The position numbers and the translations under genes are program-made. DNA of 64,000 nucleotides from Thermoplasmata archaeon (GTDB lineage Archaea > Thermoplasmatota > Thermoplasmata > Lutacidiplasmatales > UBA184): assembly GCA_035622275.1 (NCBI GenBank), contig DASPVQ010000020.1, positions 2,494 to 66,493 of the forward strand, written 5' to 3'. Positions 3,785-49,564 of this stretch are shown here, one piece after another (the first letter of the stretch is position 1; the number at the start of each line of letters is the position of its first letter). Below the pieces are notes generated by a model. The model did not search any database. It was given only the letters and a program-made list of their open reading frames with translations, and was not told the DNA's origin.

Positions 3785-5734
3785 TTACTGGGACCGGGCG
3801 CGGGCGCCGCCCGCGTCCTCGGGAAGGTGCGCCGCGCGGAGGGCCGCGCGGAATCGCGGCTCCTCGCGTAGCGAGTCGTACGCGGGGAGGCCGGCGCGCA
3901 GCCACAGACCGCTCGTCCCCTCGCGAGCCGAGCGTTCGAGGATGTCGAGTGCCGCCTCCTTCTCGCCCAGCAGCGCGTGCAGTGCGGCCGAGAAGTCGGA
4001 TCCGAGGAGCTCCTCGGGTCGAGCTTCGGTCAGTTCCTTGAGCAGCTGACGGGCCTCCTCGGGCTCGCCGAGGGGGACCAGGATCATCGCGCGAGCGAGG
4101 CGCTGGACCACGCTCCGGGGGGGCCCCGCTGCCACGAGTTCCCGCCGGGCGGCTTCTGGGTCGTTGAGGACGCTGTAGGCGACGCCGAAGCTGAGGTGGG
4201 TCCAACTCGGATCGGGGTCGGGGGTCAGCCACTTGGCCAAGCGATCGCGGGCCCCCTCGAGATCGCCGCGCAGGAGCGCGAGGTCCACGAGGAGGCGTCG
4301 TGGGGCCTGCCAGCTCGGATTGATCTCGATCGCCGCGTGGAGCTCGACCTCGGCCTCCGAGTCGCGGCCGAGCACGCGGAGCAGGGTCGAGTAGCTCAGC
4401 CGGGCGAGGGCGTTGCTGGGGTTGAGCGCGAGGGCTCGACGGAACTCCTCCTCCGCGCGTGGCCACTCGTGGTCCTGCTGCATGACGAGCTCGGCCAGCG
4501 CGGCATGCGCCTCCGAGAGGTTCGGGTCGAGCTCGAGGGCTCGCGTCACGAAGGGGCGCGCCCTGCGGAACCCCTCGCGATGCGGAAGGTAGTCGCCCGC
4601 GCCCTGTACGTAGAGGTAGCCGAGGTAGGCCTGGGCGAGCGCGAACGCGGGGTCTCGTGCGATCGCCTCCTCGAGCCACGCGATCGCTTGGCGGAACCCC
4701 TCCGGAGCGTACCCCGCCGGTTGCTGGATCGCCCGCAGGTACAGCTCGTAGGCCTGCAGATCCTTCGTCGGTGCCCGCCGGATGAACTCACGCGCCGGCT
4801 CCGACAGCTCGACGCGGATCGCCTTCGCCGTACTCTCGGCCACCTCCGTCTGGATGGCGAAGATGTCGGCGAGCTGCCGATCGTAGCTCTCGGACCAGAC
4901 GTGCTCCTGGGTCCCGACGTCGATCAGTTGGAGCGAGATCCGCAGGCGGTCGTTCGCCTTGCGAACGCTCCCTTCGAGGATCGAGGTGACGCCCAGCTCC
5001 GAGCCGATCTGGACGACCGACTTCGAGGTCGACTTGTAGGGCGTGACCGACGTGCGCGCGATGACCCGCAGCCCCCGGATCTTGGAGAGGACCGAGATCA
5101 GCTCTTCCGTGAGGCCATCGGCGAAGTACTCGTCCTTCGGATCCGGGCTGATGTTCGCGAGCGGCAACACCGCGAGGCGCGGAGGCGAGGGGGCGGCGGC
5201 CGCCGGCGCGTGCTCGTCCCCGGGAGGGACCACTCGGAACAGCTCGACCGGCTCGACCACGCCCTTGAGAGCGCGGACGCCGAGCGGCTCGATCCGGAAG
5301 CGGACCTTGTTCTTGACCTGACGGAACACGGACTCCGAGATGCACACGCCGCCGGGCTCGGCCGCGGACTCGACGCGCGCAGCGACGTTCACGGCGTCGC
5401 CGAAGATGTCGCCGCCGCGGCGCTGCACGTCCCCGAGGTGAACCCCGACGCGAACCGGGGGGAAGGCGCGCCCACCGCGCCCGGCGCGCTCCCGCAGTCG
5501 CAACTGGAAGGCGACCGCGCACTCCACCGCATCGAGCGCGCTCGGGAACTCCAGGAGGAGGCCGTCGCCCGTCGACTTCACGATCCGACCGTGGTGCTCG
5601 GCGACGAGCGGGCGGGCGAGCTTCTCTTGTTGCTGGATCAGCTCGAGCGCCCCCCGCTCGTCGGCCTGAGCCAGCTCGGTCGAGCCCACCAGGTCGGTGA
5701 AGACGATGGCCGCCAGGCGACGGGTGCCGGGCAC
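3785..5734 (-). CDS. class III adenylate/guanylate cyclase (CHD) – TolB-N-like domain – TPR repeat protein
   Basis: RRLAAIVFTDLVGST, KSTGDG, GDAVNVAARVE cyclase motifs; LAVLPLANISPDPKDEYFADGLTEELIS TolB-like segment; C-terminal TPRs; GTG start inferred from paralog alignment (V-x-G-T-RRLAA) with a TATA-like element at about -31. Confidence 0.8.
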   Translation of the reverse strand: MPGTRRLAAIVFTDLVGSTELAQADERGALELIQQQEKLARPLVAEHHGRIVKSTGDGLLLEFPSALDAVECAVAFQLRLRERAGRGGRAFPPVRVGVHLGDVQRRGGDIFGDAVNVAARVESAAEPGGVCISESVFRQVKNKVRFRIEPLGVRALKGVVEPVELFRVVPPGDEHAPAAAAPSPPRLAVLPLANISPDPKDEYFADGLTEELISVLSKIRGLRVIARTSVTPYKSTSKSVVQIGSELGVTSILEGSVRKANDRLRISLQLIDVGTQEHVWSESYDRQLADIFAIQTEVAESTAKAIRVELSEPAREFIRRAPTKDLQAYELYLRAIQQPAGYAPEGFRQAIAWLEEAIARDPAFALAQAYLGYLYVQGAGDYLPHREGFRRARPFVTRALELDPNLSEAHAALAELVMQQDHEWPRAEEEFRRALALNPSNALARLSYSTLLRVLGRDSEAEVELHAAIEINPSWQAPRRLLVDLALLRGDLEGARDRLAKWLTPDPDPSWTHLSFGVAYSVLNDPEAARRELVAAGPPRSVVQRLARAMILVPLGEPEEARQLLKELTEARPEELLGSDFSAALHALLGEKEAALDILERSAREGTSGLWLRAGLPAYDSLREEPRFRAALRAAHLPEDAGGARARSQ

Positions 5735-5799
5735 GCGCCGCCAACGGGCATGGGAGGTTAAGGATTGCAACGGCCCCCACGCGACCCGGGCCGTGGCCG

Positions 5800-8587: not shown

Positions 8588-11500
8588 TTGACGAGCGGTG
8601 ACGAACGGTCGAAGAGCGACCCGGGGCCCGGCATCCGAACTTTCCTATTCGCGGACATCCGCGGCTACACCCGCTTCATCGTCGAGCAGGGCGATGCCGC
8701 CGGGGTTCGCATGGTCGACCGGTTCGGGGCGGCGGCCCGCGAGGCCGTCGGGCCGCACCGCGGCGAGATCATCGGGCTGGCCGGCGACGAAGCCGTGGCC
8801 GTCTTCGCCTCCGCCCGCGACGCGCTCCGGTCGGCGCTCGACTTCCAGCGCCGGGTCGCGGACGCGACGGCACGCGATCCGGACGTCCCGCTCCTCGTGG
8901 GAATCGGTCTCGACACCGGCGAGGCCGTGCCGGCCGGTGGAAACTACGTCGGCGCCGCGCTGAACCTCGCCGCCCGCCTGTGCAAGCTGGCCGGACCGAG
9001 CGAGGTGCTCGCCAGCGAAGCGGTCGTCCACGTCGCGTCGAAGATCGACGGGATCGGTTACGTCGAGCGAGGGCTGGCGCAGCTCAAGGGCTTCCGGGAC
9101 CCGGTTCGGGTCTTCAAGGTCCTGGACGAGGTCCGCCCCCTCGGCCCGGCCGCCGAGACGGGTCGCCTCGAGGCGGGCCATGTTCCGCCCGAGCCACCGC
9201 CGCCGATCGGGGGCTTCCTGGGGGCGCTGCCGGCCACGGAACTGGTGGCCCGGGAGCCGGAGCTGGGCCGGGCGCTCGTCGCGGCGGACTCCGCGATCGG
9301 CGGCGCCGGGCGCTTCGTGCTCCTCGCGGGCGAGCCCGGCGTCGGCAAGACCCGCCTTGCCCAGGAGATCATGCTCACGATCCGCAACCGGCGATTCCTG
9401 GTCGCCACCGGACGTTGCTACCAGACCCACCAACCCGTGCCGTTCTACCCGTTCCTTGACGCGCTCACGAGCGCCTATCGCCTCGCCCCGCCCTCCGTCC
9501 GTGCCCTCGTCCTGGAGCGCTGGCGCCACCTCAGCCGTCTCCTGCCCGAGCTCAAGGCCGAGGTCGCTCCTCCTCTGTCCAGCACCCCGGAGGAGCAGCA
9601 GTTGTTGTTCCGCGAGGTGACGGCATTCCTCGAGGCGGTCGCGGCGGAGACACCGGTCGCGATCCTGATCGACGACCTCCACTGGGCGGACTCCGCCACG
9701 CTCGAATTGCTCCAGCACATCGCGCGCCACACGCGCGCGAGCCGGATCCTGCTCGTCGCCACCTTCCGCGACGTCGAGGTGGGTCGCCATCACCCGCTCG
9801 ATGCCGCGCTGCGTGACCTCACGCGCGAGGACCTGGTCGAGCGCATCACGGTGCGGCGCCTCGAACCGACCGGCACGGCGCGCCTGGTCGCGCTGACCCT
9901 GGGCGAATCGGACGCCTCGCCGGAGCTCGTGGAACTCCTGCACCAGCATGCCGACGGGAACCCGTTCTTCACGCAGCAGCTGCTGCGATTCCTGGTGGAA
10001 CGCGGCGACCTGTACCGCCGGGACGGCGTGTGGGTGGAACGCCCGCTCCGCCGGCTCGAGGTCCCCGATAGCGTTCGCTCGGTCATCGGTCAGCGCATGG
10101 AGCGGCTCAGCGAACCCGCGCCGCAGATCCTTCGGGAGGCGGCGGTGCTCGGGCAGACGTTCTCCTTCTCGGCCCTGGTCGGGCTGAGCGGACGCCCGGA
10201 GGCGGAGGTCGAGCGCAGCCTGGAAGAGGCCCAGGCGACCGGCCTGCTCGAGGAACGGCGACCGGATTTGTATGCGTTCGACCACGCCCTGACGCAGCAG
10301 GCCCTGTACGGGGAGCTCTCGCCGCGTCGACGTCGCGCCCTCCATCTGGCCGCCGCGGAAGCGCTCGAGCGCCTGCCGGCGGCCGAGCGGGCCCCCCGCA
10401 GCGCGGAGCTCGCGGGGCACTTCCTCGAGGCCGCGCAGGAGGAGCGGGCCATCCCCTTCGCGCTCGCGGCCGGAGACCTCGCCCGCTCGGTCTTTGCGAG
10501 CGGGCCGGCGGAGCGCCAGTACACGATCGCCCTCGAGATCGCGGAGCGGACCCATCGAGCCGACGGGGAGGCCGACGCGCTCGGACGCCGCGCGCGGCTG
10601 TACCTCGACACGTTCCGCGGCCCCCCCGGGCTCGCCGACAGCACGCGCCTGCTCGAGCTCGCGCGCCAGCGCGGGGACCGGGCCCTCGAGCTGCGGGCGC
10701 TGTTGCTGGTGTCCGAGGCGTCGTACATCGTCGCGCTCGACGCCACGACCCCCGAGCTCCTAGCCGCCTGGAGGCTCAACAGCGAGCGCGCGCAGACGCT
10801 CGCGGACGAGCTCGGCAACGAGCCCGCCAAGGTCGAAGCGCTGCTGAAGTCGCGGTGGATGGCCGACTTCTTCCCCGAGTACCGCCCCAAGGTTCAGGAA
10901 AACCTGCGCACCGCGCTGGAGGTCAGCCGGCGCCTCGGCGATCCGGATCTGACGCTGGCGAGCGAGCTCGCGCTCTGGGGACAAGGCGATCGGCTCGAGG
11001 CCGAGGCCCGGGCGACGCGCTTGGTCCGACAGCTGCGCGACCGCCGGGACTTCGGACGGCTGAACCTGCTCTACTTCTCGATGATGTGGGCCTACCTGGA
11101 ATGGGCCGAGTTCGCCAAGGCGATCGAGGCGTGCGACGCGGGCATCCGCCTCGCGGAGGAGATCGGCGTTCCGCCCGTGCAGTACCCGACGCTCCGGGCC
11201 TTCGCGCTGATCGAGCTCGGTCGCTTCGCCGAAGCCCGCGAGTCCCTGCGCCAGGAGGTGGCGGACGCCGAACATCCCTTCGGACAGGCGATGCAGCTGC
11301 TCGGGCTCGGCATGTACTTCTTCGAGCTCCGGGACTTCGGGCGCGCCGAGCAAACGTTCCGGGATCAGCTCGAGCGTGCGAAGCGGCTGCGCCGGGCCTG
11401 GATGGCGCGCTGGTCACTGGAGTACATCGCCCGCGCGCGTCTTCGCGAGGGCCGTCTCGATCCGTCGGACTGGGAGGCGCTCGAGCAGGAGATGGCCCCG

Positions 11501-11923
11501 CTGGCCAACTTCGCGTCGGATGCGGTCCGCGCCGAGGTCGCGCTCGCCCGGGGCGACACCGAAACGGCGTTGGGGGTTGCCCGCCAGGTGGCATCGAGGG
11601 CCGAGGCGGAGGAGGAGATCCGGGACCTGATGTCCGCGCGCGAGGTTGAGATCCGCGCGCTGCTCGGCCTCGGGCGCGCGCACGACGCGGCGGCGCTCGC
11701 CGAGCGGCTCGCCCGAGACCTCTCCGCTCGACAGGCCCGGTCGCGGGCGTGGCGCGCCTTCGCGCTGCGCGCTACGGCGCTCGCTGCGGCGCACGATGCG
11801 CCCGCGGCCCAGGAGGCGCGTCTCGCCGCCGGCTCGATCGTTCGGGAGCTCGCCGAGTCGATCCCAGAGGCCGAATCGAGGCGAGCGTTCTTGACGAGCC
11901 CCGAGGTTCGAGACCTGCTCTAG
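8588..11923 (+). CDS. nucleotidyl cyclase (CHD) – STAND/AAA ATPase – TPR multidomain protein
   Basis: FLFADIRGYTRF cyclase; Walker A LLAGEPGVGKTRLAQE; long C-terminal helical/TPR region; TTG start with a TATA-like element at about -33. Confidence 0.8.
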   Translation: MTSGDERSKSDPGPGIRTFLFADIRGYTRFIVEQGDAAGVRMVDRFGAAAREAVGPHRGEIIGLAGDEAVAVFASARDALRSALDFQRRVADATARDPDVPLLVGIGLDTGEAVPAGGNYVGAALNLAARLCKLAGPSEVLASEAVVHVASKIDGIGYVERGLAQLKGFRDPVRVFKVLDEVRPLGPAAETGRLEAGHVPPEPPPPIGGFLGALPATELVAREPELGRALVAADSAIGGAGRFVLLAGEPGVGKTRLAQEIMLTIRNRRFLVATGRCYQTHQPVPFYPFLDALTSAYRLAPPSVRALVLERWRHLSRLLPELKAEVAPPLSSTPEEQQLLFREVTAFLEAVAAETPVAILIDDLHWADSATLELLQHIARHTRASRILLVATFRDVEVGRHHPLDAALRDLTREDLVERITVRRLEPTGTARLVALTLGESDASPELVELLHQHADGNPFFTQQLLRFLVERGDLYRRDGVWVERPLRRLEVPDSVRSVIGQRMERLSEPAPQILREAAVLGQTFSFSALVGLSGRPEAEVERSLEEAQATGLLEERRPDLYAFDHALTQQALYGELSPRRRRALHLAAAEALERLPAAERAPRSAELAGHFLEAAQEERAIPFALAAGDLARSVFASGPAERQYTIALEIAERTHRADGEADALGRRARLYLDTFRGPPGLADSTRLLELARQRGDRALELRALLLVSEASYIVALDATTPELLAAWRLNSERAQTLADELGNEPAKVEALLKSRWMADFFPEYRPKVQENLRTALEVSRRLGDPDLTLASELALWGQGDRLEAEARATRLVRQLRDRRDFGRLNLLYFSMMWAYLEWAEFAKAIEACDAGIRLAEEIGVPPVQYPTLRAFALIELGRFAEARESLRQEVADAEHPFGQAMQLLGLGMYFFELRDFGRAEQTFRDQLERAKRLRRAWMARWSLEYIARARLREGRLDPSDWEALEQEMAPLANFASDAVRAEVALARGDTETALGVARQVASRAEAEEEIRDLMSAREVEIRALLGLGRAHDAAALAERLARDLSARQARSRAWRAFALRATALAAAHDAPAAQEARLAAGSIVRELAESIPEAESRRAFLTSPEVRDLL

Positions 11924-14912: not shown

Positions 14913-15329
14913 ATGGACGGCAGGATATCTCAGGTGACCCTCGTCGTGACCGACGCCGCGCGGTCCCTTGCCTTCTACGTCGACCAGGTGGGCTTCGAGA
15001 AGAAGACCGACGTCGCGACGCCGGCCGGCTACCGCTGGGTGACGGTGGGGCCCCGCGGACAGGACCTCGAGCTCGCGCTCTGGCAGGAGGGCTCGGCCAC
15101 GGATCCTGAGCAGCGGGCCTGGTCGAAGAACTGGGGGCCGGCGAAGGCGCCGCCCATCGTGCTACGAGTCTCCGACTGCCGGAAGGTCTACGAGGAGCTC
15201 CGCGGGCGCGGGGTCGAGTTCGTGCAGGTCCCGAAGGAGTACCCGTGGGGGATCGCGGCGACGTTCCGCGATCCGGACGGCAATCTCTTCTCGCTTAGTC
15301 AGCCGCCGGCCGGCTGGCCGCCGGCGTGA
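14913..15329 (+). CDS. VOC/glyoxalase-bleomycin resistance family protein
   Basis: ISQVTLVVTDAARSLAFYVDQVGFEKK...FRDPDGNLFSL. Confidence 0.75.
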   Translation: MDGRISQVTLVVTDAARSLAFYVDQVGFEKKTDVATPAGYRWVTVGPRGQDLELALWQEGSATDPEQRAWSKNWGPAKAPPIVLRVSDCRKVYEELRGRGVEFVQVPKEYPWGIAATFRDPDGNLFSLSQPPAGWPPA

Positions 15330-18526: not shown

Positions 18527-21500
18527 ATGCAGCGTAGGGAGAGCCTCACCGGCGCCGCGATCGCGGTCGCCGTAGCGCTCGCGATGCTGCTGTCAGCGTC
18601 CGCGGGTCCTCTCATGGGTTCGGCCGCGGCGCCGGGCCCCTCGACGGTCTCCTCGGAGCGTGCGGACACATCCCCGCGGGCCACCCCCTCCCCTCGGGTC
18701 GGTACCGCTGCGCCGAACGCGGCGGCCGCGGGCGCCGACGGGCGGGGCGCGGTACCCTCGATCCCTCCGCTCGCCGCGCTGCATCTCGCGCCCGCGCCCG
18801 CCCAGGGTGCCGGAAGCGAGGTCCGAGCCGTCACGTATCTCGCGGCGGCCTCGCTGGCAACCTCCGCCGCGAACAGCTACGACCCTGAGGACTGGTTGGT
18901 CTCCCTCGGCGTCGCGATCGACGAGCCGCTGAACTTGGTGGGCACGATCACCAACACGACGTTCGGGCTCTGTCCCGACCATCTGATCGTGCCCGTGCCC
19001 TCCGCCCTCACCATCTGGGGAACACCGGCATCCGCCGCACTGGGTACGTCCGCGTTCTTCGAGTTCTTCCTGACCTCCTCGAACGTCCCCGCGACCACGT
19101 TGTTCGGCATCGTGGACAACGACACGGCCGAGATGATCTACTGGACGCCGAACCTGCAGATCGACGACACCACCTGCGGCACCCTCTTCGGCACGCCGTG
19201 GGGCTCGTCGACGGTCATCGATTCGCCCGCCGCGGTGACGATGGCGAACTCGGTCGGCGGGAGCGCGTTCCTCGCCTCCCACCCGGGAGCGAGCGAGCTG
19301 TGGGAGTTCGTCCCGGTCGAGCCGGCATTCGTCGCCGGCACGCTCTACAAGCAGCCCGCCGCCTGGGTGATCGAGTACGAGACGGGAGGCACCTGCGGGA
19401 TCTTCAACGCTCCCGGAGGCGGGCTCGAGTTCGAGGCAGAGATCGACGCGCTGACGGGTGCCGTTCTGTCGACTTATTCCGGCGCCTGCGGGCTCGAGCT
19501 GCCCGTCACGTTCGTCGAGACCGGGCTGCCGAGCGGGACCGTCTGGAGCGTTCAGACTCCCGACCAGACCAACTCCTCCGCGACGGACACGATCGGCTTT
19601 GCCTGGGAGAACGGGACCATAACCTACGGGATCGTCGGTGTCCCGGGGTACTCCGCGTCGCCGGCCTACGGGATGGTCGATGTGAACGGCGCGGCGATCC
19701 GCGTCACGATCGCGTTCGCTCCGGCGACCACCGAGCCGGTGACCTTCACCGAATCCGGGCTCCTCGCGAACGCTGGCTGGCTGGTCGAGCTGAACGACAC
19801 CTTCGAAGTCTCCTCGACCAACTCGATCTCGTTCTCCGAGCCCGCCGGAATCTACGCCTTCACGGTGTACGGCCCGGCGACCGGTTACCTGCTGAGCCCG
19901 ACGAACGGCAACGTGACGGTCTCCGGAGAACCGGCGTCGGTCCCGGTAGATTTCACCGCGCTCGCGTCCTACACGATCTCGTTCACCGAGACCGGTCTTC
20001 CCGCGGGGACCTGTTGGGGGGTCGAGGCGATCGGGCCGGACTTCCTCGTGTCGAGCTTCTCCACCAAGACCACCGTCAACGTCAGCGCCGGGAACGGGAC
20101 GTACGACTACCTGGGAGGCGCGTTCGCCCCCAACTACAACACGAGCGCGGCGTACCAGCACGTGACGGTCGCCGGATCCCCCGTTCCCGTGAGCGTGCCC
20201 TTCACCCCGCAGGCCCTGTACGCGGTGACGTTCACGGAGACCGGGCTCCCGAGCGGAACCCCGTGGATCGTCGGGAACAGCGAGTCGCTCCTCCTGGTGA
20301 ACTCCTCGAGCGGTTCGAGCATCGGTTTCCTCCTGCCGAACGGCTCGTTCCCCTTCGTCGTGGGACTCGTCTCGGCCTACGACCGTTCGCCGGCCAGTGG
20401 GACTCTCGCCATCGAGGGGTCCGCGATGTCGCAGATGGTCGCGTTCACGCGCAACGCCTCCGAGGCCGAGTACGGCGTGGCCTTCGTCGAGTCGAACCTC
20501 CCCGGCGGGACGGCCTGGAACGTCACGGTGGGGGTCGAAACGATCTCGACCACCACGTCCACGGTCGACTTCGAACTGATCAACGGATCGTACGCGTTCT
20601 CCGTCAGCTCGGTGCCCGGGTTCACCCGTAGTCCCTCGAGCGGCGACGTCGTGGTGGAGGGGGCGCCCGTTTCCCAATCGATCACGTTCTCCTCGACGTC
20701 GATCGTTCTCTACACCGTGACCTTCACCGAGACCGGTCTCCAGGCCGGAACCATGTGGTCGGTGATGCTCTCGATCGAGACCAACTTCTCGACGACGGCC
20801 AGCGTCACGTTCGCGGAAGGCGACGGATCGTACGCCTTCACCGTGACGAGCATCGCCGGCTACGAGGTCTCGCCCGCGACCGGAACCGTCGTCGTGGACA
20901 GCGCAGCGGCGATCGAGAGGATCACGTTCTCGCGCCTGTATTCCGCTTCGTTCCGCGAGTCGGGCCTGCCCGTCGGCACGGAATGGTCCGTCTCACTGAA
21001 CGGCTCGCTGAACTCCTCGACCATCGACCTGGTCGGCTTCAGCGTCCCGGCCGGCGACTACCCGTACTCGATCGCGTCGTTCGGCCGCTGGCTCCCGCAG
21101 CCCGCTCAGGGCAATCTGAACGTCTCGGGCCCGGGAGCGACGGTCGCGATCGCCTTCGTCTACGCCTACGAAGTCCTTTTCGATCGGCCCGGGGGAGTCC
21201 CGTCGGGGTCGGAGTGGTCGGTGATCCTGTCCGGCTCGGGCCTCCTCACGATCGCGCGCGCGCCGGCCGCGTCGCTCAGCCGGAGCTCGACGCTTCCCAC
21301 GATCTCGTTCGAGGAACCGAACGGTACCTACTCCTACACCGTGCTCGTGGCGTCCGATCCCAGCTACAGTGCGTCGGGCAGCGTCACGATCTCGGGCAAT
21401 TCGCCCGCCGTGACGCCACCCGTCCTGGCGGGTCCGGCCCCCGCGAGCAGCCCGCCGACGAACTACTGGATGTACACCGCCCTCGGAGCCATGGTCGTGG

Positions 21501-21586
21501 CGGTGATCCTCGGCATCGCCCTCGTTCTTATGCGTCGGGGGTCCCCGCCGCCCGACCCTCCGTACGACCCGGTCCGCCGTCGGTGA
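18527..21586 (+). CDS. large cell-surface glycoprotein with eight tandem ~95-aa 'FxExGLPxGTxWxV' repeats and a C-terminal TM anchor
   Basis: Signal peptide; about 20 N-x-S/T sequons; repeats begin VTFVETGLPSGTVWSV, ISFTETGLPAGTCWGV, VTFTETGLPSGTPWIV and so on; ends with a TM helix plus MRRGSPPPDPPYDPVRRR. Confidence 0.8.
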   Translation: MQRRESLTGAAIAVAVALAMLLSASAGPLMGSAAAPGPSTVSSERADTSPRATPSPRVGTAAPNAAAAGADGRGAVPSIPPLAALHLAPAPAQGAGSEVRAVTYLAAASLATSAANSYDPEDWLVSLGVAIDEPLNLVGTITNTTFGLCPDHLIVPVPSALTIWGTPASAALGTSAFFEFFLTSSNVPATTLFGIVDNDTAEMIYWTPNLQIDDTTCGTLFGTPWGSSTVIDSPAAVTMANSVGGSAFLASHPGASELWEFVPVEPAFVAGTLYKQPAAWVIEYETGGTCGIFNAPGGGLEFEAEIDALTGAVLSTYSGACGLELPVTFVETGLPSGTVWSVQTPDQTNSSATDTIGFAWENGTITYGIVGVPGYSASPAYGMVDVNGAAIRVTIAFAPATTEPVTFTESGLLANAGWLVELNDTFEVSSTNSISFSEPAGIYAFTVYGPATGYLLSPTNGNVTVSGEPASVPVDFTALASYTISFTETGLPAGTCWGVEAIGPDFLVSSFSTKTTVNVSAGNGTYDYLGGAFAPNYNTSAAYQHVTVAGSPVPVSVPFTPQALYAVTFTETGLPSGTPWIVGNSESLLLVNSSSGSSIGFLLPNGSFPFVVGLVSAYDRSPASGTLAIEGSAMSQMVAFTRNASEAEYGVAFVESNLPGGTAWNVTVGVETISTTTSTVDFELINGSYAFSVSSVPGFTRSPSSGDVVVEGAPVSQSITFSSTSIVLYTVTFTETGLQAGTMWSVMLSIETNFSTTASVTFAEGDGSYAFTVTSIAGYEVSPATGTVVVDSAAAIERITFSRLYSASFRESGLPVGTEWSVSLNGSLNSSTIDLVGFSVPAGDYPYSIASFGRWLPQPAQGNLNVSGPGATVAIAFVYAYEVLFDRPGGVPSGSEWSVILSGSGLLTIARAPAASLSRSSTLPTISFEEPNGTYSYTVLVASDPSYSASGSVTISGNSPAVTPPVLAGPAPASSPPTNYWMYTALGAMVVAVILGIALVLMRRGSPPPDPPYDPVRRR

Positions 21587-26706: not shown

Positions 26707-27117
26707 TCAGGCGAACTCGCCGACCGGCCGCAGGAACCGAAGCACGTACCCATCCGGGTCGTTCACCATGAACGCGGTGCCGTACGGCCGCTTCGACAGG
26801 CGGGATTCGATCGTGAATTTGGCCTTCCGTGCCTTCGCGTAGATCCTCTCGACCGCGCGCAACTCCACCGTCACGATGACCCCGGCGCCGAGGGGAGTGC
26901 TGACCCAGCGGGCGTAGTCGTCGTCGCGTCCCCGCATGCGATCCTCGGGGATCCGCCCCAGCGCGATCACGGCGTCTCCGATGCCGACGCCCGCGTAGGT
27001 CCGCTTGCCATCGTCGCCCTTCCACTCCCAGCGGAGGTCGAACCCCAACTGCTCGTAGAAGCGCACCGACCGGTCCACGTCTCGAACGTTGAACATGGCG
27101 CTCATTTCGGCCTTCAT
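26707..27117 (-). CDS. VOC/glyoxalase family protein
   Basis: FNVRDVDRSVRFYEQLGF...FMVNDPDGYVLRF; internal ATG (MKAEMSAMF). Confidence 0.7.
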   Translation of the reverse strand: MKAEMSAMFNVRDVDRSVRFYEQLGFDLRWEWKGDDGKRTYAGVGIGDAVIALGRIPEDRMRGRDDDYARWVSTPLGAGVIVTVELRAVERIYAKARKAKFTIESRLSKRPYGTAFMVNDPDGYVLRFLRPVGEFA

Positions 27118-27244
27118 AGCGTGTCCTCGAGCCGCCAACCCCGACGGCGTCATGTCGTTTCCACCCGCGCCCGCCGGACGGCGCCCGCCCTCGCGCGCAC
27201 CGGCCGCGCCGTCACCCACCCGGCGGCGGCAGGACCGACGCCGC

Positions 27245-30784: not shown

Positions 30785-31189
30785 CTACATCCCGGCCGGA
30801 ACCTGAAACACCATCCAGAGATTCCCTTCCGGATCCTTGAAAAAGGCCGAGGTTCCGTACGGAGTCGACACGACCGGCCCTTCGACCTTCGAGCCGGGCC
30901 CCATGGACTCACCTCGCTGGAAGCTCACGCCGCGGCGTTGAAGCGATTTCACGTACCGTTTCGCGTTCTTGACGATCAGGGTCATGTAGGATAGGCTCCG
31001 CTTCTCACGCTTGTCCGGCGAAACGAGCCAGACGTTGTGATCGGCGATGCTCATCGCCGTCCAGGAGTTCCTCATTTCGCCGGTGCCGCGCATGGTCACA
31101 CGGCCGCCGAGCTGCTTCGTGTAAAACCGAATCGCTCGGCTCATGTTCCGGATCGGAATCAGGGTCACAAATTCCACGGACTTCGCCAT
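30785..31189 (-). CDS. VOC/glyoxalase family protein
   Basis: FVTLIPIRNMSRAIRFYTKQLGG...FFKDPEGNLWMV. Confidence 0.7.
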   Translation of the reverse strand: MAKSVEFVTLIPIRNMSRAIRFYTKQLGGRVTMRGTGEMRNSWTAMSIADHNVWLVSPDKREKRSLSYMTLIVKNAKRYVKSLQRRGVSFQRGESMGPGSKVEGPVVSTPYGTSAFFKDPEGNLWMVFQVPAGM

Positions 31190-37458: not shown

Positions 37459-38895
37459 TCACTTCGGAAGCGCGAACCGATAGACGCTGACCGGGTTGCT
37501 CACGTTCTTCAGCCGCGTCTGGGCCAGCTCGTCCATCTTGACCGGGACCTTGTTCCACACCTGGTCGTAGACCTGCTGCGTCGCGCAGATCCCGCCGGGC
37601 TCGGCCATCGGCTCGATCCGCGAGGCGATGTTCACCGCGTCCCCGAGGATATCGCCGCCGACCGAGACCAGGTCCCCCACGTGCAGACCGATCCGCAGCT
37701 GGATCGGATCTCGACGACGCCCTTCGTTCCGCTTGCGCAATCGGCGCTGGATCTCGATCGCGCACTTCGCGGCATCGAGCGCGCTCGAGAACTCGAGGAG
37801 GAAGGCGTCCCCCATGGTCTTGATCTCGCGCCCCTTGTGGCGGGGGTACGCCGCGCGCACCAGGAGTCGATGCTCCTCCAGGAGCTTGAGCGCGCGCGCC
37901 TCGTCCTTTTGCGCCAGCGTCGTGAAGCCGACCATGTCGGTGAACATGATGGCGGCGAGACGGCGCTCCGTGATCGGTCGGTCGTGAGCTTCGGTCGTGA
38001 CGAGCACGTCCTGGACCCGTCCCGAGGGCCGGCGAACACTCAGGCGGACCTTCGGCTCGGCTTCGGGGCCGGAGAGCGCCTTGCCGAGCCGCTCGCTCCA
38101 GTCGCTGACGTTCTCGGACATGTTCGTCCCGTTGCCGACCCGAAGCCCGTCGAGCGCGACCACCGAATCCCCTCGGTCCAAGCCCGCCCGTAGCGCCATG
38201 CTGGCCGGGCGGGCCGGACTCAGCATCCCGATACCGGCGGTGGGCGGCACCTTGGGGTCCATCGCGGCCCGCCAGAGATCCATCAGCATCGCGGTGCCGT
38301 GGGTCCCGCACATGCAGATGCCGAGCCCACACGAGGGACACACGCACCGACATTCGAGTCCCTCCCGGCTCAGCTCCCACACGGTCACGTCCGACACCAG
38401 CGTGTGCAGGATCTCGACGCTCTGAGCGTAGTCCTTCAGGCACTCTTCGGCGATGTCGGCGGAGTTGCCCTCGTCCATGCCGCCCCAGTAGCTGTCGCAC
38501 TGGCGGTGCGCGACGACGTGGAGGACCGAGTAGCCGAACGTGGCCTCGGCGATGAGCGAATACAGCACCTGGAGCGCTACCGTCGGGGCCAGCTTGTCGC
38601 TCAGGGCCACCGGGACCACCGGCGGAGAACCCACGCGGACGGTCGTCCTCGGATCGGGACCCCCGATGCCCAGCATCCGGACCCTCCAGCCTTCGAGGTG
38701 GTCTGCGGCCATGGTCTTGAGACGGCCGAGCAGCGCCGTGGCCCCCGCGTGCTCCTTCAGGGACTTCGAGATCGGTCCGAGCGCTTCGAGGATCTGTCCC
38801 TCGACCGCGACCATGTGCGAGATGTAGTCGATCTCTCGCGCCCGATGCGGCCCGGAGTACAGTCCGGGCCCATGCGGCCGGTCGGTCCGCGACAT
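37459..38895 (-). CDS. multidomain sensor nucleotidyl cyclase: N-terminal helical domain – Cys cluster (CRCVCPSCGLGICMCG) – PDZ-like – CHD cyclase
   Basis: C-terminal RRLAAIMFTDMVGFT, KTMGDAFLLEF, GDAVNIASRIE; eight-Cys cluster; PDZ-like GDSVVALDGLRV; ATG MSRTDRP chosen. Confidence 0.7.
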   Translation of the reverse strand: MSRTDRPHGPGLYSGPHRAREIDYISHMVAVEGQILEALGPISKSLKEHAGATALLGRLKTMAADHLEGWRVRMLGIGGPDPRTTVRVGSPPVVPVALSDKLAPTVALQVLYSLIAEATFGYSVLHVVAHRQCDSYWGGMDEGNSADIAEECLKDYAQSVEILHTLVSDVTVWELSREGLECRCVCPSCGLGICMCGTHGTAMLMDLWRAAMDPKVPPTAGIGMLSPARPASMALRAGLDRGDSVVALDGLRVGNGTNMSENVSDWSERLGKALSGPEAEPKVRLSVRRPSGRVQDVLVTTEAHDRPITERRLAAIMFTDMVGFTTLAQKDEARALKLLEEHRLLVRAAYPRHKGREIKTMGDAFLLEFSSALDAAKCAIEIQRRLRKRNEGRRRDPIQLRIGLHVGDLVSVGGDILGDAVNIASRIEPMAEPGGICATQQVYDQVWNKVPVKMDELAQTRLKNVSNPVSVYRFALPK

Positions 38896-40100: not shown

Positions 40101-40511
40101 ATGTCCGATGTGATCCAGGGTATGGAGGCGGTGTCCGTGCACATTACCGACATCCAGCGTGCACGGAAGTTTTACTCGGAGGTCCTGGGGCTCCGCGAGG
40201 TCTCCTTCCTTCCGTCCGCCTCCCGGGCCGCCTACGAGATCCCAGGGACCACGACCCTGCTGACGATGCACACCATGGGGGAAGGCGAAGGGGGCCGGGA
40301 GCCAGGCACCGTGTCGGGCATCGTGTTCTCGCATCGGGATCCGCGGGCGGCGTGCGCCGAGATCCGGAGTCGTGGGGGGTCGATCGTCGACGAGCCGCAT
40401 ACGTTCCCGGCCGCGATCGGAACCGTGACCTTGGGAGTCTTCGCGGATCCGGACGGGAACCAGTTCGTGATCCGGCACGTCGAGGCCGCTCCGAAACCGG
40501 TCCAGGGGTAG
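40101..40511 (+). CDS. VOC/glyoxalase family protein
   Basis: VHITDIQRARKFYSEVLGL...FADPDGNQFVI. Confidence 0.7.
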   Translation: MSDVIQGMEAVSVHITDIQRARKFYSEVLGLREVSFLPSASRAAYEIPGTTTLLTMHTMGEGEGGREPGTVSGIVFSHRDPRAACAEIRSRGGSIVDEPHTFPAAIGTVTLGVFADPDGNQFVIRHVEAAPKPVQG

Positions 40512-43303: not shown

Positions 43304-45898
43304 ATGGGTGCGCTCCGTTGGCCGCTCCTGGTGCTGGTAGCCGCGATTGCTGCGATCATGGTCGTGCCCTCTCCGGCGGGCCTCGCCTCGCCGGCTGCCC
43401 CCCGAGGGGCTACGCTCGCCGCGTTACCGAGCTCTTCGGCCGCCGGGCCAGTCGCGGCGGAGCCGGCGCATCCGGCGGCGCCGGCGCCCGCCACGGCCCA
43501 AGTCCGAGCGCAAGATATCGAAGCGCGCATGACATCGTCCCTGGCCCGCGACGGCATCCCGGCAGCTGAACAGCTCCTCCCGAACCTCATGTCTCAGACG
43601 AGCGTGAAGGACGGGCAGATCGTACCGGCGCCCGCGACAGTGCCTTCGCCGATGGGAGTCGCGGATTACGGCATCCAGGAGGTGGGCGGCGTGAACGTTC
43701 CGACGCTGAACTTCTATCAGAGCATCGCGGGGCGATTCACGATGAACGAGATCGGCCTGAACTACCCCAACAGTGCCGGCCCGGATGAGTTCTCCCTGCA
43801 ACTCAACACGGTGGCCTCCAACGTCACGCTCTTCGGCAATTCGAGCTACCAGTTCTGGACGCAGAACGTCGTCTACTACTTCCAGAGTACGCACAGCCTG
43901 CATCTCTTGGACGCGATCGTCAACTTCACCAACAGCGACTTCAACTTCTCACCGAACACAATCATCGAGGGAAACGGGTTCTACTATCCCGGGTTCGGCT
44001 ACTTCTATCCGTACGGACCCGATCTGACGGTGCCCGAGCCATTCACGATCAACTTCTACAACAACCTGACCGTACAGGACGGCGACTCGGCGATCTACTT
44101 CAACTACTCCGTCAGCTCGCCGGACGGAATCCAGTCGGGGTCCTTCGACCTGGTGGTGTTCAACTCTCAGCCGCTCAGCGGGCCGGCGATCACCTCGGTG
44201 TCGCCGTTGTTCGAGATCAACGGCTATCAGCTCACCGGGACCGGCTTCATCCCCTACGACGCCGAGATGATTCTCGGAGGGGACGGGGGCGGCTCGACGG
44301 CGTCGATCTTCGACATCAACGCCGAGGTCCAACTGTTCCTCGAGGCGGCCGGCGCGAGCAGTTACAGCCCGATCCCAGCGGGATACTCGTTTGGCAGCGA
44401 GACCGGAGAGACCGTGTCCGGAGTTGCCGAATGGGCGTCCGGCGGCCCGGACCCCGTGGTCCATCTCGGGCCGGGTCCCGCGAACCTCGGTCCGCTGTTC
44501 GGGGTCCTCGGTGCTCCACCGACCGGCTATGTCACGCAGACGCTCAACGTCCAGCCGACGAACGCGTTCATCTTCGGCTCGCTCGGCAGCACCTTCAACG
44601 CGAACACGGCCGCGTGGGGTCCGGTGCCGACGTCCGGACGGGCGACCTATCTGCTGCCCCCGGGGACCTACAGCTACGACGTGATGCTGAGCGATCACGA
44701 TCCGGTGCTCGTGACCATCTCGGGGTCCGGATCGGCGGTGATCCGCCTGCGGACGGACTGGTCGCAAGGGGTCTACACGCCGCTCTGGGCCTTCGATAAC
44801 GCGCAGCTGGCGGCAATCTCGCTCCCCGGAGGCTCCGGCTCGCAGCGGAACCCCTACCTCCTCGACAACAACGGCGTCGCGCAGCTCGACCCGCTGTTCA
44901 GCACCTTCAACGACTACATCTTCTGGCAGTTCCCCGGCGTCTTCCTCTCGGGCACCACGGCCTACGTCGCGCTGTACCAGGCGCCGTCGTTCACCGCGCC
45001 GCTCTCGCTGTCGTGGGAGGTCGCCTACAGCTACAGCGCTTACCTCCCGCCGACGACTCAGCTGACGATCTACCTGTACGCCACCGACCACGCGTCCGTG
45101 GTCGACTGCTCGGACATCGGCGGTTGGTGGTTCGTCTCGGACGTCGGCGAGTCGGAGGCGAACCTGGTGCTCTGGAACGCTACCGACACGCTGGTCGCGG
45201 GGAACACGTTCCAGGACTCGAGCATCTCCATGTTCACCTTTGGCGGCGCCGGCAACGTGCTGTGGGGCAACGTCTTCGAGACCTACCTCGATCCGGCCGC
45301 GCCGTACCCGGGGTTCATCCTCAACTACGGCATCCCCCAGGCCCTCCAGGAGTGGGAATCGGGGGACCTGATCTACAACAACGCGTTCGACACTCCCCAG
45401 ACCGCGGTGAGCCCGCCCTACAGCATCTACTCCTTCTACGGTGTCCCTGAGACCTGGACGGACAGCTGGGACGTCATCCCCCAGCCCGCGTTCCTGCTGT
45501 CGTACGTCAACGGCTGGCGGCTCACCGGGAGCATCCTCGGCCTCCCGTACGTGGCCGGCAACTTCTGGTCGAACTACGGCTCGGGCGCGGACCCGTACGG
45601 CGAGCTCCCCTACAACGACAGCGGGGCGATCGCCTACGGCGGGGATTACTTCCCCGTCGTCCCCTACCCGCTCTACGACATCGTGTTCATCGAACACGGG
45701 CTCCCCCATGGGACCGAGTGGTCGGTGACCATGAACGGCTTTACGCAGTCGACGACCGGGCGCACGCTCGTCTTCGAGGATCCGACGGGATCGTATCCGT
45801 TCGCGGTCGCCACGACCTCGAGCTACACGCCGACCCCGGCCTCGGGGGTGGTCGTCCTGACGAGCCACAGCGTCGTCGTGGTCGTGTACTGGAGCTGA
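43304..45898 (+). CDS. large secreted N-glycosylation-sequon-rich protein with a beta-helix-like central region and one C-terminal 'GLPxGTxW' repeat (thermopsin-like?)
   Basis: Signal peptide; many NxS/T; parallel beta-helix-like turns (LVAGNTFQDS, NVLWGNVFE); C-terminus YDIVFIEHGLPHGTEWSVTMNG matches the repeat of 18527..21586. Confidence 0.75.
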   Translation: MGALRWPLLVLVAAIAAIMVVPSPAGLASPAAPRGATLAALPSSSAAGPVAAEPAHPAAPAPATAQVRAQDIEARMTSSLARDGIPAAEQLLPNLMSQTSVKDGQIVPAPATVPSPMGVADYGIQEVGGVNVPTLNFYQSIAGRFTMNEIGLNYPNSAGPDEFSLQLNTVASNVTLFGNSSYQFWTQNVVYYFQSTHSLHLLDAIVNFTNSDFNFSPNTIIEGNGFYYPGFGYFYPYGPDLTVPEPFTINFYNNLTVQDGDSAIYFNYSVSSPDGIQSGSFDLVVFNSQPLSGPAITSVSPLFEINGYQLTGTGFIPYDAEMILGGDGGGSTASIFDINAEVQLFLEAAGASSYSPIPAGYSFGSETGETVSGVAEWASGGPDPVVHLGPGPANLGPLFGVLGAPPTGYVTQTLNVQPTNAFIFGSLGSTFNANTAAWGPVPTSGRATYLLPPGTYSYDVMLSDHDPVLVTISGSGSAVIRLRTDWSQGVYTPLWAFDNAQLAAISLPGGSGSQRNPYLLDNNGVAQLDPLFSTFNDYIFWQFPGVFLSGTTAYVALYQAPSFTAPLSLSWEVAYSYSAYLPPTTQLTIYLYATDHASVVDCSDIGGWWFVSDVGESEANLVLWNATDTLVAGNTFQDSSISMFTFGGAGNVLWGNVFETYLDPAAPYPGFILNYGIPQALQEWESGDLIYNNAFDTPQTAVSPPYSIYSFYGVPETWTDSWDVIPQPAFLLSYVNGWRLTGSILGLPYVAGNFWSNYGSGADPYGELPYNDSGAIAYGGDYFPVVPYPLYDIVFIEHGLPHGTEWSVTMNGFTQSTTGRTLVFEDPTGSYPFAVATTSSYTPTPASGVVVLTSHSVVVVVYWS

Positions 45899-45956
45899 CG
45901 GACGGCCAGCGCCGAGGGTCGGCCCCGGGGTCGACGGGTGAGGGCGGGGGGACGCG

Positions 45957-47490: not shown

Positions 47491-47520
47491 CGGCGTTCGC
47501 TCCTCTACCGGTGACCCGCC

Positions 47521-47528
47521 CTATATAC
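47521..47528 (-). promoter_or_regulatory. TATA box (ctatatac on + strand) upstream of the minus-strand gene starting at 47490
   Basis: Distinct AT-rich octamer with spacing of about 30 nt. Confidence 0.35.
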
Positions 47529-47611
47529 TCATGGAGCGGCGCGCACGGGCCTCGCCTCGGCCGGCCGGAGGCCGGTCGTCCCGCCGGGCCCCGGTCCGCC
47601 GAAGCGCCGGC

Positions 47612-49564
47612 TCACTTGGTCGTGGGGTCGGGCAGGTAGTACCGCGACAGGAGCTCGAGGAACCTCAGGTCCCTCCTCGCCCCGGCGAACAGTGGAGAGA
47701 GGCGGATTCGCGCGAGCTGCAGCGTGTGCTCCTTGACGGCGAGGTGCATGCACTCGAAGAACCGGTCCAGGTCCCCGAGCGCGTAGTAGATGAACCCGAT
47801 GGAGTTGTGCGAGCGCGCGCTGCCCTGGTACCGCGCCTCGCTCATCCGGGCGATCACCTTCATGGCGGTGGCCCGGTCGCCCTGGACCCCGGCGAGGTAG
47901 CCTCGGCAGAGCAGCGCGTTGTCGCTCGTGGGCGCGATGCGCTCGAGCTCCCGGACGCTGCGCTCCGCCTGCTCGAGATCCCCGGTGTAGATGTAGTACT
48001 CCACGAGCCCGCGATAGGCGTTGATCGGACTCTGCTCCGCATGCCTCTTCCAGTGCGCGAGGGCGTCGTCGAGGCGACCCGAGGAGAAGTACGCGTCGCC
48101 GAGCCGGCGGATCGTCTCCGTCGAGAGGGGGTCGAGGTGGTAGGCTTCCTCCGCCTGGAGGATGTAGGACTCTCGTACGCCGAAGGTCGCCGCCATCGCC
48201 GTGAGGATCGAGTGACCCTGGGCCAGGTTCGGGTTCAGCTCGAGGGCCCGTCGCACCTCCCGGTTCAGCACGTCGGACGGCTCGTCGGCCATGAAGGCGA
48301 GCTCGCCCCGCGCGGCGTGCGCCTCGGCGAGGTCGGGGTCGACAGCGCAGGCCTTCTCGGCGGCCGCCCGGCCGAGCTTGATGGCTTCCATCCAGGGCGT
48401 GAACCCCTCGGCGCCGAGGCCGATGTAGGCGCGGGCGAGGCCGGCGTACGCCCGGGCGAAGGTCGGGTCGGTCCGGATCGACTTCTGGAAGAACGCCACC
48501 GACTGCCGCAGCGAGTCCTCGTCCTGGTGCCACATCAGCGCCGTTCCCTGGAGGTAGTCCAGGTAGGCCTCCGTCGCGGTCGGCTTCTCGAGGGTGGGAA
48601 CCGGGGCTCGGGCCTTCTCCAGGCTGCGGGGCAGCGAGGTGGCGACCTTCGTCGCGATGTCGCTCTGGACCGCGAAGATGTCGTTGAGGTCGTCATCGTA
48701 CTTCGATGTCCACAGGTGCTCCTCGGTCCCGACATCGATGACCTGGACGGTGACCCGGATCCGGTTCGCGGCGCGCCGGACGCTGCCCTCGACGATCGTG
48801 CCGACCCCGAGCTCCTTGCCGATCGTCGCGACCGACTTGTCGGTCTTCTTGTAGCCGATCACGGACGTCCGGGCGATCACCTTGAGGCCCGGGACGAGCG
48901 AGAGGTTCGCGATCAGCTCCTCCGTCATCCCGTCCGCGAAGTACTCGTCGCTGGGGTCCGGGCTGATGTTCGCGAAGGGCAGCACCGCGAGCCGGCTGGG
49001 ATCCGGAGGGCTCGAGTCCTCGGCCGCGGCGGGGTGACCATTGTCGCTCCACGGCAGCACCACCCGGTAGACGTCGATCGGCGACTGGAGCCCCTTGAGC
49101 TCCTGGGCGGGGAGCTTAGAGAACTTGTCCGGCACCTTGGTGCGGACCTGGTCGTAGACGGCCCCCGAGACGCAGATGCCGCCCGGTTCTGCGAGCGGTT
49201 CGAGGCGGGCCGCGATGTTCACCGCATCGCCGAGGATGTCCGCGCCGTTGCGCACGACGTCGCCGAGATGGACCCCGATCCGGATCCGGATCGGGGCGTG
49301 ACCGCCCTCGGAGTTCTGTTCGAAGAGGCGACGCTGGATGTTGACCGCGCACTGCACGGCCCGCAGGGCGCTGTCGAACTCGACGAGGAACCCATCGCCC
49401 GTGGACTTGATCTCGTGCCCCTGGTGGAGCGCCAAGAGCGGGCGGACCAGCTCGGCTTGCTGTCGTAACGAGTCGAGCGCCCGGCCCTCGTTGGCCTGCG
49501 TGGACGCGGTGTAGCCCACGGTGTCGGTGAACATTACGGCCGCGAGACGGCGCCCGGTCGCCAC
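47612..49564 (-). CDS. class III nucleotidyl cyclase – TolB-N-like – TPR protein
   Basis: VATGRRLAAVMFTDTVGYT (GTG start by homology with MTGTRRLAAIMFTD of 21716); KSTGDG; GDAVNIAARLE; LAVLPFANISPDPSDEYFADGMTEELI; TPRs; CTTATCTC about 25 nt upstream. Confidence 0.8.
   Translation of the reverse strand: MATGRRLAAVMFTDTVGYTASTQANEGRALDSLRQQAELVRPLLALHQGHEIKSTGDGFLVEFDSALRAVQCAVNIQRRLFEQNSEGGHAPIRIRIGVHLGDVVRNGADILGDAVNIAARLEPLAEPGGICVSGAVYDQVRTKVPDKFSKLPAQELKGLQSPIDVYRVVLPWSDNGHPAAAEDSSPPDPSRLAVLPFANISPDPSDEYFADGMTEELIANLSLVPGLKVIARTSVIGYKKTDKSVATIGKELGVGTIVEGSVRRAANRIRVTVQVIDVGTEEHLWTSKYDDDLNDIFAVQSDIATKVATSLPRSLEKARAPVPTLEKPTATEAYLDYLQGTALMWHQDEDSLRQSVAFFQKSIRTDPTFARAYAGLARAYIGLGAEGFTPWMEAIKLGRAAAEKACAVDPDLAEAHAARGELAFMADEPSDVLNREVRRALELNPNLAQGHSILTAMAATFGVRESYILQAEEAYHLDPLSTETIRRLGDAYFSSGRLDDALAHWKRHAEQSPINAYRGLVEYYIYTGDLEQAERSVRELERIAPTSDNALLCRGYLAGVQGDRATAMKVIARMSEARYQGSARSHNSIGFIYYALGDLDRFFECMHLAVKEHTLQLARIRLSPLFAGARRDLRFLELLSRYYLPDPTTK

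Follow-up and report, generated by a model that had tools for sequence, protein, structure and literature searches.

Does an archaeon of the class Thermoplasmata possess the enzymes of cyclic AMP (cAMP) signaling, and, if so, how did several of them come to lie close together on one chromosome segment? We address this question in a 64,000-nucleotide stretch of DNA from a Thermoplasmata archaeon (contig DASPVQ010000020.1, positions 2,494 to 66,493; hereafter, the window), which carries five genes, termed A to E, whose products contain class III cyclase homology domains (CHDs; Table 1). From sequence comparison, we consider it probable that these genes code for five separate, soluble class III cyclases with different cytosolic inputs in a soil member of the Thermoplasmata, that A, B, C and E are adenylyl cyclases, and that the genes are old paralogs or xenologs. 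We give about even weight to a broader proposal, namely that soil archaea in no fewer than two phyla, Thermoplasmatota and Thermoproteota (the latter with Nitrososphaerales and Bathyarchaeia), have a true cAMP system that combines multi-copy class III cyclases, single-domain CAP-type readers and, in the form of E, a metal- or redox-sensing cyclase.

cAMP has been detected in archaea for decades. If true, the broader proposal would fill two gaps in archaeal cAMP signaling, the 'writer' and the 'reader'; for both, the window and its related loci together offer concrete, cloning-ready candidates. According to a 2023 review, no archaeal protein making, degrading or binding cAMP has been characterized, and the CYTH proteins put forward as archaeal 'class IV' enzymes are not cyclases (PMC10249747), which agrees with the remark in the initial annotation of this locus that class III cyclases are barely characterized in archaea. 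Class III cyclases receive a passing mention in comparative genomics of cultured Nitrososphaeraceae (PMC13577086) and of sponge Thaumarchaeota (PMC9289680). Our literature searches, which had incomplete journal coverage, returned nothing on class III cyclases of Thermoplasmatota and no assayed archaeal member. Cyclases fused to tetratricopeptide repeats (TPRs), STAND ATPases or other sensors are a well-known kind of enzyme in bacteria; hence, the value of the present set lies in where these enzymes occur and in what becomes testable, rather than in a new mechanism.

Five Class III Cyclases in One Window

A profile made from the five CHDs and searched against the six-frame translation of the window recovered exactly five such domains and none further. 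The five cyclase domains proposed by the initial annotation are thus borne out at their coordinates by this profile, by Pfam, by matches to solved structures and by public gene calls. At a cut-off of 21.9 bits, the Pfam cyclase model PF00211 scores 52 bits for A, 45 for B, 51 for C and 61 for E. The N-terminus of D on its own falls just below the cut-off (21.1 bits), yet it aligns to model positions 10-179 of 183 and matches solved cyclases, namely Ma1120 (1.3e-14), Rv1900c and Rv1264. Gene calling was based on third-position G+C, the window being about 70% G+C throughout. The start of B merits a comment: the 654-residue protein begins with GTG, as against an ATG-truncated call of 644 residues in a large protein collection.

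The three proteins A, B and C display a common cyclase–TolB-N-like–TPR architecture, as had been proposed and as domain annotation confirms. This three-part arrangement has more than 7,000 relatives in a large protein collection, where the JGI label reads 'TolB-like protein/class 3 adenylate cyclase/PilF'. The N-terminus described as shared by A, B and C is present; however, it is merely the first strand of the CHD, with the family-wide consensus RRLAAIMFTD, and is internal in E. At NCBI, B is named 'tetratricopeptide repeat protein' and D 'AAA family ATPase', so that their cyclase domains are invisible in the annotation and cyclase counts in such genomes are too low. None of the five proteins has a hydrophobic run of 15 or more residues, and all are probably cytosolic because they lack any run compatible with a membrane helix.

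Catalytic Residues and Predicted Activity

Catalytic positions were mapped by alignment onto K101, D157, A164 and R168 of Ma1120, using published definitions (PMC4215837). In A, the catalytic residues are D14, K53, D57, R95, D109, N116, R120 and K157. The metal-binding Asp pair is D14/D57 in A, B and C, D320/D363 in E and D23/D67 in D, with the transition-state Asn/Arg at N116/R120, N422/R426 and N126/R130, respectively. The substrate-specifying pair is Lys/Asp in A, B, C (K53/D109) and E (K359/D415), and G63/N119 in D. The Arg of the RIGIH motif and a C-terminal Lys, which we take to be phosphate contacts by comparison with mammalian cyclase structures, are also kept in A, B, C and E. With the canonical adenylyl residue set complete, these four proteins are most likely homodimeric adenylyl cyclases that convert ATP to 3',5'-cAMP and pyrophosphate.

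Across an alignment of 97 full-length family members, both metal-binding Asp residues, the RIGIH Arg and the transition-state Asn and Arg are conserved in 97/97, the substrate Lys in 88/97 and the substrate Asp in 90/97. The archaeal members all carry Lys/Asp at the substrate positions, with Asn/Asp in a single exception. Glu/His at these positions is confined to relatives from Bacteroidota and Ignavibacteria, which may be guanylyl or otherwise divergent cyclases. These bacterial proteins (L042, L059, L061, L064 and L077) have the same architecture, with one of them showing Glu/Tyr and one Asp/Gln instead.

The analysis of substrate residues for adenine versus guanine, which had been suggested as a check, therefore returns the adenylyl pair for A, B, C and E and a deviation for D. 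The latter retains the metal Asp pair, Asn, Arg and Lys, but Lys is replaced by Gly63, Asp by Asn119 and Arg by Gly105. Thus, the initial claim that none of the five has lost the metal Asp residues or the transition-state Asn/Arg is literally correct, although it overlooked the atypical pocket of D at G63, G105 and N119.

Putative Regulatory Modules of A, B, C and D

The middle module of A, B and C has an alpha/beta fold that superposes on the N-terminal domain of TolB, in support of its earlier description as TolB-N-like. It is followed by TPRs, with TPR_19, TPR_17, TPR_11 and TPR_14 above their cut-offs. Across 60 homologs, 23 residues of the module are invariant, which argues for a predicted specific binding function. 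Since the NCBIfam CadC and HilA profiles match the module together with the TPR region, the combination is, on this profile evidence, a recurring sensor/regulatory supermodule, whose partner here is a cyclase rather than a DNA-binding domain. In CadC and HilA, the same supermodule follows the DNA-binding domain. The CadC module is periplasmic and has a winged-helix output, whereas A, B and C have no transmembrane segment, are predicted to be cytosolic and carry the cyclase output at the N-terminus. In these three proteins, the C-terminal TolB-N-like and TPR regions presumably bind a ligand or partner and would thereby set the activity of the cyclase dimer.

D combines its divergent CHD with an AAA_16 domain (96 bits; cut-off 32.6) that also matches NACHT (28.8 bits; cut-off 26.7) and has an intact Walker A (GEPGVGKT at 248) and Walker B (AILIDD at 358). 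The earlier reading of D as CHD, STAND ATPase and TPR stands for the first two parts. The TPR assignment is weakly supported, with all C-terminal matches below cut-off and the best, TPR_8, at 20 bits against 25.7. D is one of a conserved family of proteins with about 1,110 residues, whose nearest named members come from Dormibacterota, Chloroflexota and Thaumarchaeota. Its order of parts, with the cyclase at the N-terminus and the AAA_16/STAND ATPase and helical repeats after it, is that of Rv0386-type proteins and of the cyclase and ATPase parts of TIGR03903, from which it differs in lacking a C-terminal LuxR helix-turn-helix (HTH), a kinase domain and the phosphate-contacting Arg. Castro and co-workers reportedly described, in 2005, a Gln/Asn substrate pair in Rv0386, with which the Gly/Asn of D agrees at the second position (Asn instead of Asp) and disagrees at the first. 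By analogy to other STAND proteins, ligand-triggered oligomerization through the STAND sensor would gather the cyclase domains of D.

A Ferritin-like, Cysteine-Rich Cassette in E as a Probable Sensory Input

The initial annotation described E as a fusion of a PDZ domain, a Cys cluster and a CHD. The last two were recovered; the PDZ match is below threshold in E itself (16.6 bits against 27), and its homologs pass, with PF17820 or PF13180 matches among them and scores of 34-55 bits in cassette relatives. The predicted secondary structure of E is compatible with a PDZ domain. What had been missed is a ferritin-like four-helix bundle, which makes up the first ~180 residues in the predicted fold and has conserved E32, H66, H126-x3-H130, D134, D147 and E174; of these, distant homologs of the cassette have not kept H126 and H130. 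The Cys cluster follows the pattern C-x-C-x-C-P-x-C-x4-C-x-C-x2-H, and its residues C182, C184, C186, C189, C194, C196 and H199 are invariant in 41 homologs. No Pfam model was found over the bundle or the Cys cluster.

Full-length relatives of E are rare (~44 among 5.8 billion proteins). An exhaustive search of 1.84 billion proteins with the cassette alone (E residues 1-215, nt 38251-38895) yielded 170 representative clusters, mostly proteins of ~270 residues consisting of the cassette and a PDZ domain, with some of ~389 residues fused to a LuxR/GerE HTH. One of the clusters comes from Heimdallarchaeota LC_3, in which two hypothetical proteins have the cassette. Its fusion to a cyclase is confined, among the length classes observed, to the E family. 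The ferritin-like/Cys6His/PDZ unit of E is an undescribed cassette, and we regard it as a sensory module because one input is wired to different outputs (alone, LuxR/GerE or cyclase). The bundle is lined with His and Glu and the cluster has six Cys, from which metal binding is predicted; the N-terminal cassette most likely senses a metal or the redox state and would regulate the C-terminal CHD.

Examples of the cassette include P0356, P0360, P0380, P0399 and P0407. Separately, a set of cyclase-TolB-TPR variants of 814-825 residues (P0003, P0011, P0024, P0026 and P0027) has an N-terminal extension of ~170 residues. P0003 aligns across 53% of the length of E, past the CHD, which suggests that a PDZ-containing extension is common to these variants and the E family.

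Origin of the Genes

We compared the window with the best 80 of at least 585 relatives obtained in a scan with B, with one genome per GTDB species (loci labeled L0xx). Of these, 67 are archaeal (soil Thermoplasmata, Nitrososphaerales/Thaumarchaeota, Bathyarchaeia and two unclassified archaeal metagenome-assembled genomes, or MAGs) and 13 bacterial. The 97 full-length family members were placed in an unrooted neighbor-joining tree with 100 bootstraps.

In pairwise comparisons, A, B and C show 42-46% protein identity and ~67% DNA identity. Near-identical assembly duplicates, which had been named as a possible refutation of the locus, are rejected by this divergence, leaving A, B and C as real paralogs. 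Exact DNA words common to members of the A/B/C set reach at most 28 nt, and B and E have one of 37 nt in common. Gene conversion between B and E was considered on account of the 37-nt word and rejected, as the word encodes the invariant strand RLAAIMFTDMVG, conserved in the family, in a genome with ~90% third-position G+C.

Each of A, B and C is 50-54% identical to proteins of other genomes, versus 40-43% to its paralogs in the window. The phylogeny that had been proposed as a check, built here from full-length proteins, likewise puts the three in separate supported clades, indicative of old families. A groups with L013, L014 and L016 in a Thermoplasmata subclade of 100% bootstrap support, and B falls in another subclade with equal support, both of them inside a Thermoplasmata-only clade (bootstrap 90). 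This topology indicates that A and B probably split through an old duplication inside the Thermoplasmata lineage. C falls in a 100%-supported clade of Thermoplasmata and Nitrososphaerales that is nested among Nitrososphaerales and Bathyarchaeia (bootstrap 76); its best relatives are Thermoplasmata L019 (54%) and Nitrososphaerales L057 and L069 (52%). This placement points to a putative exchange between archaeal phyla. Cyclase genes are found on either strand at spacings of 2.9-13.8 kb, and the intervals hold unrelated accessory genes. Hence, the 'local expansion' of the initial annotation is not supported, and, as judged from the tree and gene arrangement, the five genes are old paralogs or xenologs in an accessory-gene region rather than products of recent local amplification.

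As regards the acquisition from bacteria that the initial annotation considered possible, composition shows no recent import of any of the five: third-position G+C is 0.86-0.90 in A-D and 0.79 in the extended open reading frame (ORF) of E, against 0.79-0.93 in the neighbors. In the tree, 11 of the 13 bacterial sequences form a clade of their own. L020 and L060, from unclassified 'bacterium' MAGs, pair with Nitrososphaerales (88-100% bootstrap), which could reflect cross-domain transfer or mis-binned or misclassified MAGs.

The archaeal affiliation of the window has good support on several grounds. E, B and D are identical to NCBI entries (accessions in Table 1) that sit together on a single contig of 247 kb in the MAG of a Thermoplasmata archaeon. 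In ENA, the window sequence belongs to contig k141_564301 of ERZ27251333. The non-cyclase neighbors match Thermoplasmata loci best, at 55-88% identity. Gene order near the ortholog of B in L010, a locus on a 990-kb contig, is common to that locus and the window, and a three-gene run is common to the window and L048. Moreover, a thermopsin gene and a gene for an HTH_10 regulator lie in the window. Scans for tRNAs and Rfam families gave no match in it.

Copy Number and Candidate Cyclic-Nucleotide Readers

The initial annotation considered five cyclases in 64 kb extreme for any genome, a view that the related loci do not sustain. Two or more family cyclases are present in 18 of the 80 loci and three or more in five. 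Related archaeal loci hold 3-4 copies inside 10-22 kb, with the Nitrososphaerales loci L024 and L054 each having four in at most 22 kb. Measured as extra copies, the density in the window (0.65 per 10 kb) is high, but only ~2.2 times the average in related flanks (0.29 per 10 kb). No further cyclase was found in an extra contig flank of 11.5 kb. These families are therefore multi-copy in soil Thermoplasmata, Nitrososphaerales and Bathyarchaeia.

Clustering of all ORFs within 4 kb of family cyclases revealed no widespread operon partner over the 80 loci; the largest neighbor clusters span five loci, and one of them is a cyclic nucleotide monophosphate (cNMP)-binding protein. These neighbors are stand-alone PF00027 proteins of ~130-180 residues (Table 1), which score 65-77 bits against a cut-off of 27.5 and have the FGE...R[ST]A phosphate-binding cassette. 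We propose the adjacent PF00027 proteins as candidate archaeal cAMP readers. Their presence also supports, by context, a cyclic nucleotide as the product of the family.

Table 1. Cyclase genes of the window with their parts, and PF00027 genes near family cyclases in related loci. Positions are those of the window or, where a locus label is given, of that locus.
Feature	Coordinates	Strand	Extent	Remarks
Cyclase A	3785-5734	(-)	649 aa	public gene call with the same coordinates, 649 aa
A, CHD	5225-5734	(-)	aa 1-170	
A, TolB-N-like	4775-5188	(-)	~aa 183-320	
A, TPR	3788-4702	(-)	~aa 345-649	
Cyclase D	8588-11923	(+)	1111 aa	public gene call agrees; NCBI HXW67305.1
D, divergent CHD	8633-9130	(+)	aa 16-181	
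D, STAND/AAA_16 ATPase	9239-9757	(+)	aa 218-390	
D, helical C-terminal region		(+)	~650 aa	
Cyclase B	21716-23680	(+)	654 aa	NCBI HXW67314.1, 654 aa
B, CHD	21716-22225	(+)	aa 1-170	
B, TolB-N-like	22268-22645	(+)	aa 185-310	
B, TPR	22733-23677	(+)	~aa 340-654	
Cyclase E	37459-38895	(-)	478 aa	public gene call agrees; NCBI HXW67329.1
E, ferritin-like four-helix bundle	38365-38850	(-)	aa 16-177	
E, Cys6His cluster	38299-38352	(-)	aa 182-199	
E, PDZ-like	37996-38238	(-)	~aa 220-300	
E, CHD	37462-37968	(-)	aa 310-478	
Cyclase C	47612-49564	(-)	650 aa	
C, CHD	49055-49564	(-)	aa 1-170	
C, TolB-N-like	48605-48997	(-)	~aa 190-320	
C, TPR	47615-48517	(-)	~aa 350-650	
PF00027 ORF	L046:3532-3990	(+)		Thermoplasmata; directly upstream of cyclase, same strand
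PF00027 ORF	L076:9109-9654	(+)		Thermoplasmata; 4 bp downstream of cyclase, same strand
PF00027 ORF	L065:~3670-4098	(-)		Thermoplasmata; near cyclase
PF00027 ORF	L054:9310-9750	(-)		Nitrososphaerales; near cyclase
PF00027 ORF	L054:16951-17502	(+)		Nitrososphaerales; near cyclase
PF00027 ORF	L055:14642-15127	(+)		Nitrososphaerales; near cyclase
PF00027 ORF	L055:~1841-2308	(-)		Nitrososphaerales; near cyclase
PF00027 ORF	L034:4204-4575	(+)		Bathyarchaeia; near cyclase

Relation to Known Cyclases

The closest characterized catalytic domains are those of Rv1900c (LipJ), Rv1264 and Ma1120, with Ma1120 matching B at 9e-16 and D at the value given above, Rv1900c at 1e-14 and Rv1264 at ~1e-4 to 1e-7. 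We take these three to be class IIIc in the Linder-Schultz scheme. The NCBIfam LipJ model matches all five cyclases of the window. The mycobacterial enzymes have the same catalytic residue set and a short dimerization-arm region, and a homodimeric mechanism is accordingly to be expected of the window proteins, if the resemblance holds. The regulatory domains differ: in the mycobacterial enzymes they are an alpha/beta hydrolase or a pH-sensing N-terminus, as against TolB-like plus TPR, STAND, or ferritin-like/Cys/PDZ units here. Ma1120 has Ala164 where A, B, C and E have the canonical Asn, and the host here is archaeal.

The best solved match to the CHD of B is PDB 3mr7, an 'adenylate/guanylate cyclase/hydrolase' of Ruegeria (Silicibacter) pomeroyi from structural genomics (3.8e-36 over 164 residues), with which it has the GDIFGDAVN-ARxE motif in common. 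In contrast to B, this protein is bacterial; it is functionally uncharacterized, and its catalytic domain alone was solved. PycC of the Pycsar systems has the same catalytic fold, from which the window cyclases differ in their purine-type Lys/Asp, their large sensor domains and the lack of a recurrent effector gene.

Alternative Explanations

Several observations count against a cAMP system with A, B, C and E as adenylyl cyclases and E as a metal or redox sensor. The window sequence is from a MAG. No gene for a cNMP-binding, GAF or phosphodiesterase protein was found in the window or in the extra 11.5 kb of flank, and adjacency of a cyclase and a PF00027 gene amounts, as a raw count, to 6 of the 80 related loci. 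Given its lack of the Lys/Asp pair and of the phosphate-contacting Arg, D may be weakly active, of another specificity or non-catalytic. The bundle of E is ferritin-like in fold, as in ferritin, Dps and bacterioferritin, but has no canonical ExxH motifs, and hence none of the usual diiron ligands. Furthermore, E of the window has Ala64 (nt 38704-38706) where at least 90% of the 41 homologs carry Glu. Position 64 is part of helix 2 of the bundle and lies next to the invariant His66, so that the change could affect a metal site.

The residues of D also lend some weight to the alternative that some or all of these proteins are not adenylyl cyclases in vivo, making instead cGMP or other cNMPs or serving as non-catalytic dimerization or scaffold domains, D above all. 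Ma1120 illustrates that non-canonical residues can support activity and that specificity is plastic (PMC4215837), and the Glu/His of the bacterial relatives of A, B and C is in line with this. However, the complete adenylyl set of A, B, C and E is kept in essentially all archaeal members, and cNMP-binding proteins with an intact phosphate-binding cassette adjoin family cyclases, leaving this alternative unlikely. Another possibility is anti-phage defense, with A, B, C and E as Pycsar-like generators and D as an Avs-like STAND sensor whose cyclase effector depletes ATP or signals abortive infection. PADLOC does return PycC matches for all five, although they are weak (E-values 1e-6 to 1e-10), much weaker than the matches to signaling cyclases, and reflect generic homology of the cyclase domain. 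The effector-NTPase-repeat layout of D is typical of defense STAND proteins and the region is rich in accessory genes, yet D matches no Avs or other STAND-defense model, no recurrent effector gene adjoins the cyclases, and over the loci no neighbor other than the cNMP-binding proteins recurs. The Lys/Asp pair denotes a purine (adenine) rather than the pyrimidines of Pycsar, and conserved multi-copy families with stable lengths fit housekeeping signaling better than defense islands. We therefore hold a role in defense to be very unlikely.

As to origin, the presence of one architecture in three genes inside 46 kb, together with the tandem arrays of relatives, would suit a recent local duplication that yielded A, B and C within the region. 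The closer kinship of each with proteins of other genomes, the separate 100%-bootstrap clades and the unrelated genes between these dispersed copies on different strands render such an event highly improbable. A bacterial contig mis-binned into an archaeal genome, with an ordinary bacterial cyclase repertoire, might be suspected from the 70% G+C and from architectures common in soil bacteria. This we regard as extremely improbable in view of the thermopsin and HTH_10 genes, the neighbors matching Thermoplasmata loci with shared gene order (including L010), the assignment of the 247-kb contig to a Thermoplasmata MAG by NCBI, and the closest family members from many independent archaeal MAGs. 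Finally, partial NCBIfam matches recall cyclases of RiPP clusters: A, B and C match TIGR04510 ('peptide modification system cyclase') with 40-76 bits, and D matches TIGR03903 ('TOMM kinase/cyclase') with 180 bits (6.5e-53). These scores lie far below the thresholds of 400 and 706 bits, respectively, a kinase domain is absent from D, and the neighborhood has no RiPP precursor, cyclodehydratase or radical-SAM genes, such that membership in a RiPP cluster has next to no probability. 

Other Features of the Window

Small accessory and detoxification genes are dense in the window (14913-15329, 26707-27219, 30785-31189, 40101-40511 and others). They include four of the glyoxalase/VOC fold, several SRPBCC proteins (AHSA1/Polyketide_cyc2), DinB, two RibD_C, GNAT, ArsR and MEDS, as well as two TPMT-like and other methyltransferases. 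Overall, the window looks like a flexible genome region. Between 30001 and 34000, G+C drops to ~0.645, compared with 0.68-0.73 elsewhere in the window; this segment contains no cyclase and could have been acquired more recently.

Directly upstream of B lies an ORF of 1019 residues (18527-21586(+)) whose third-position G+C of 0.90 is a strong sign of coding; it is also a public gene call and has no Pfam match. The thermopsin-family protease (43304-45898(+); PF05317, 163 bits) has 864 residues, far longer than the 256-position model, and has homologs of ~34% identity in the Thermoplasmata loci L046 and L075. About 4.8 kb past the 3' end of the window, the same contig codes for a pentapeptide-repeat protein (PF00805) of 1094 residues (L083:14824-18108(-)).

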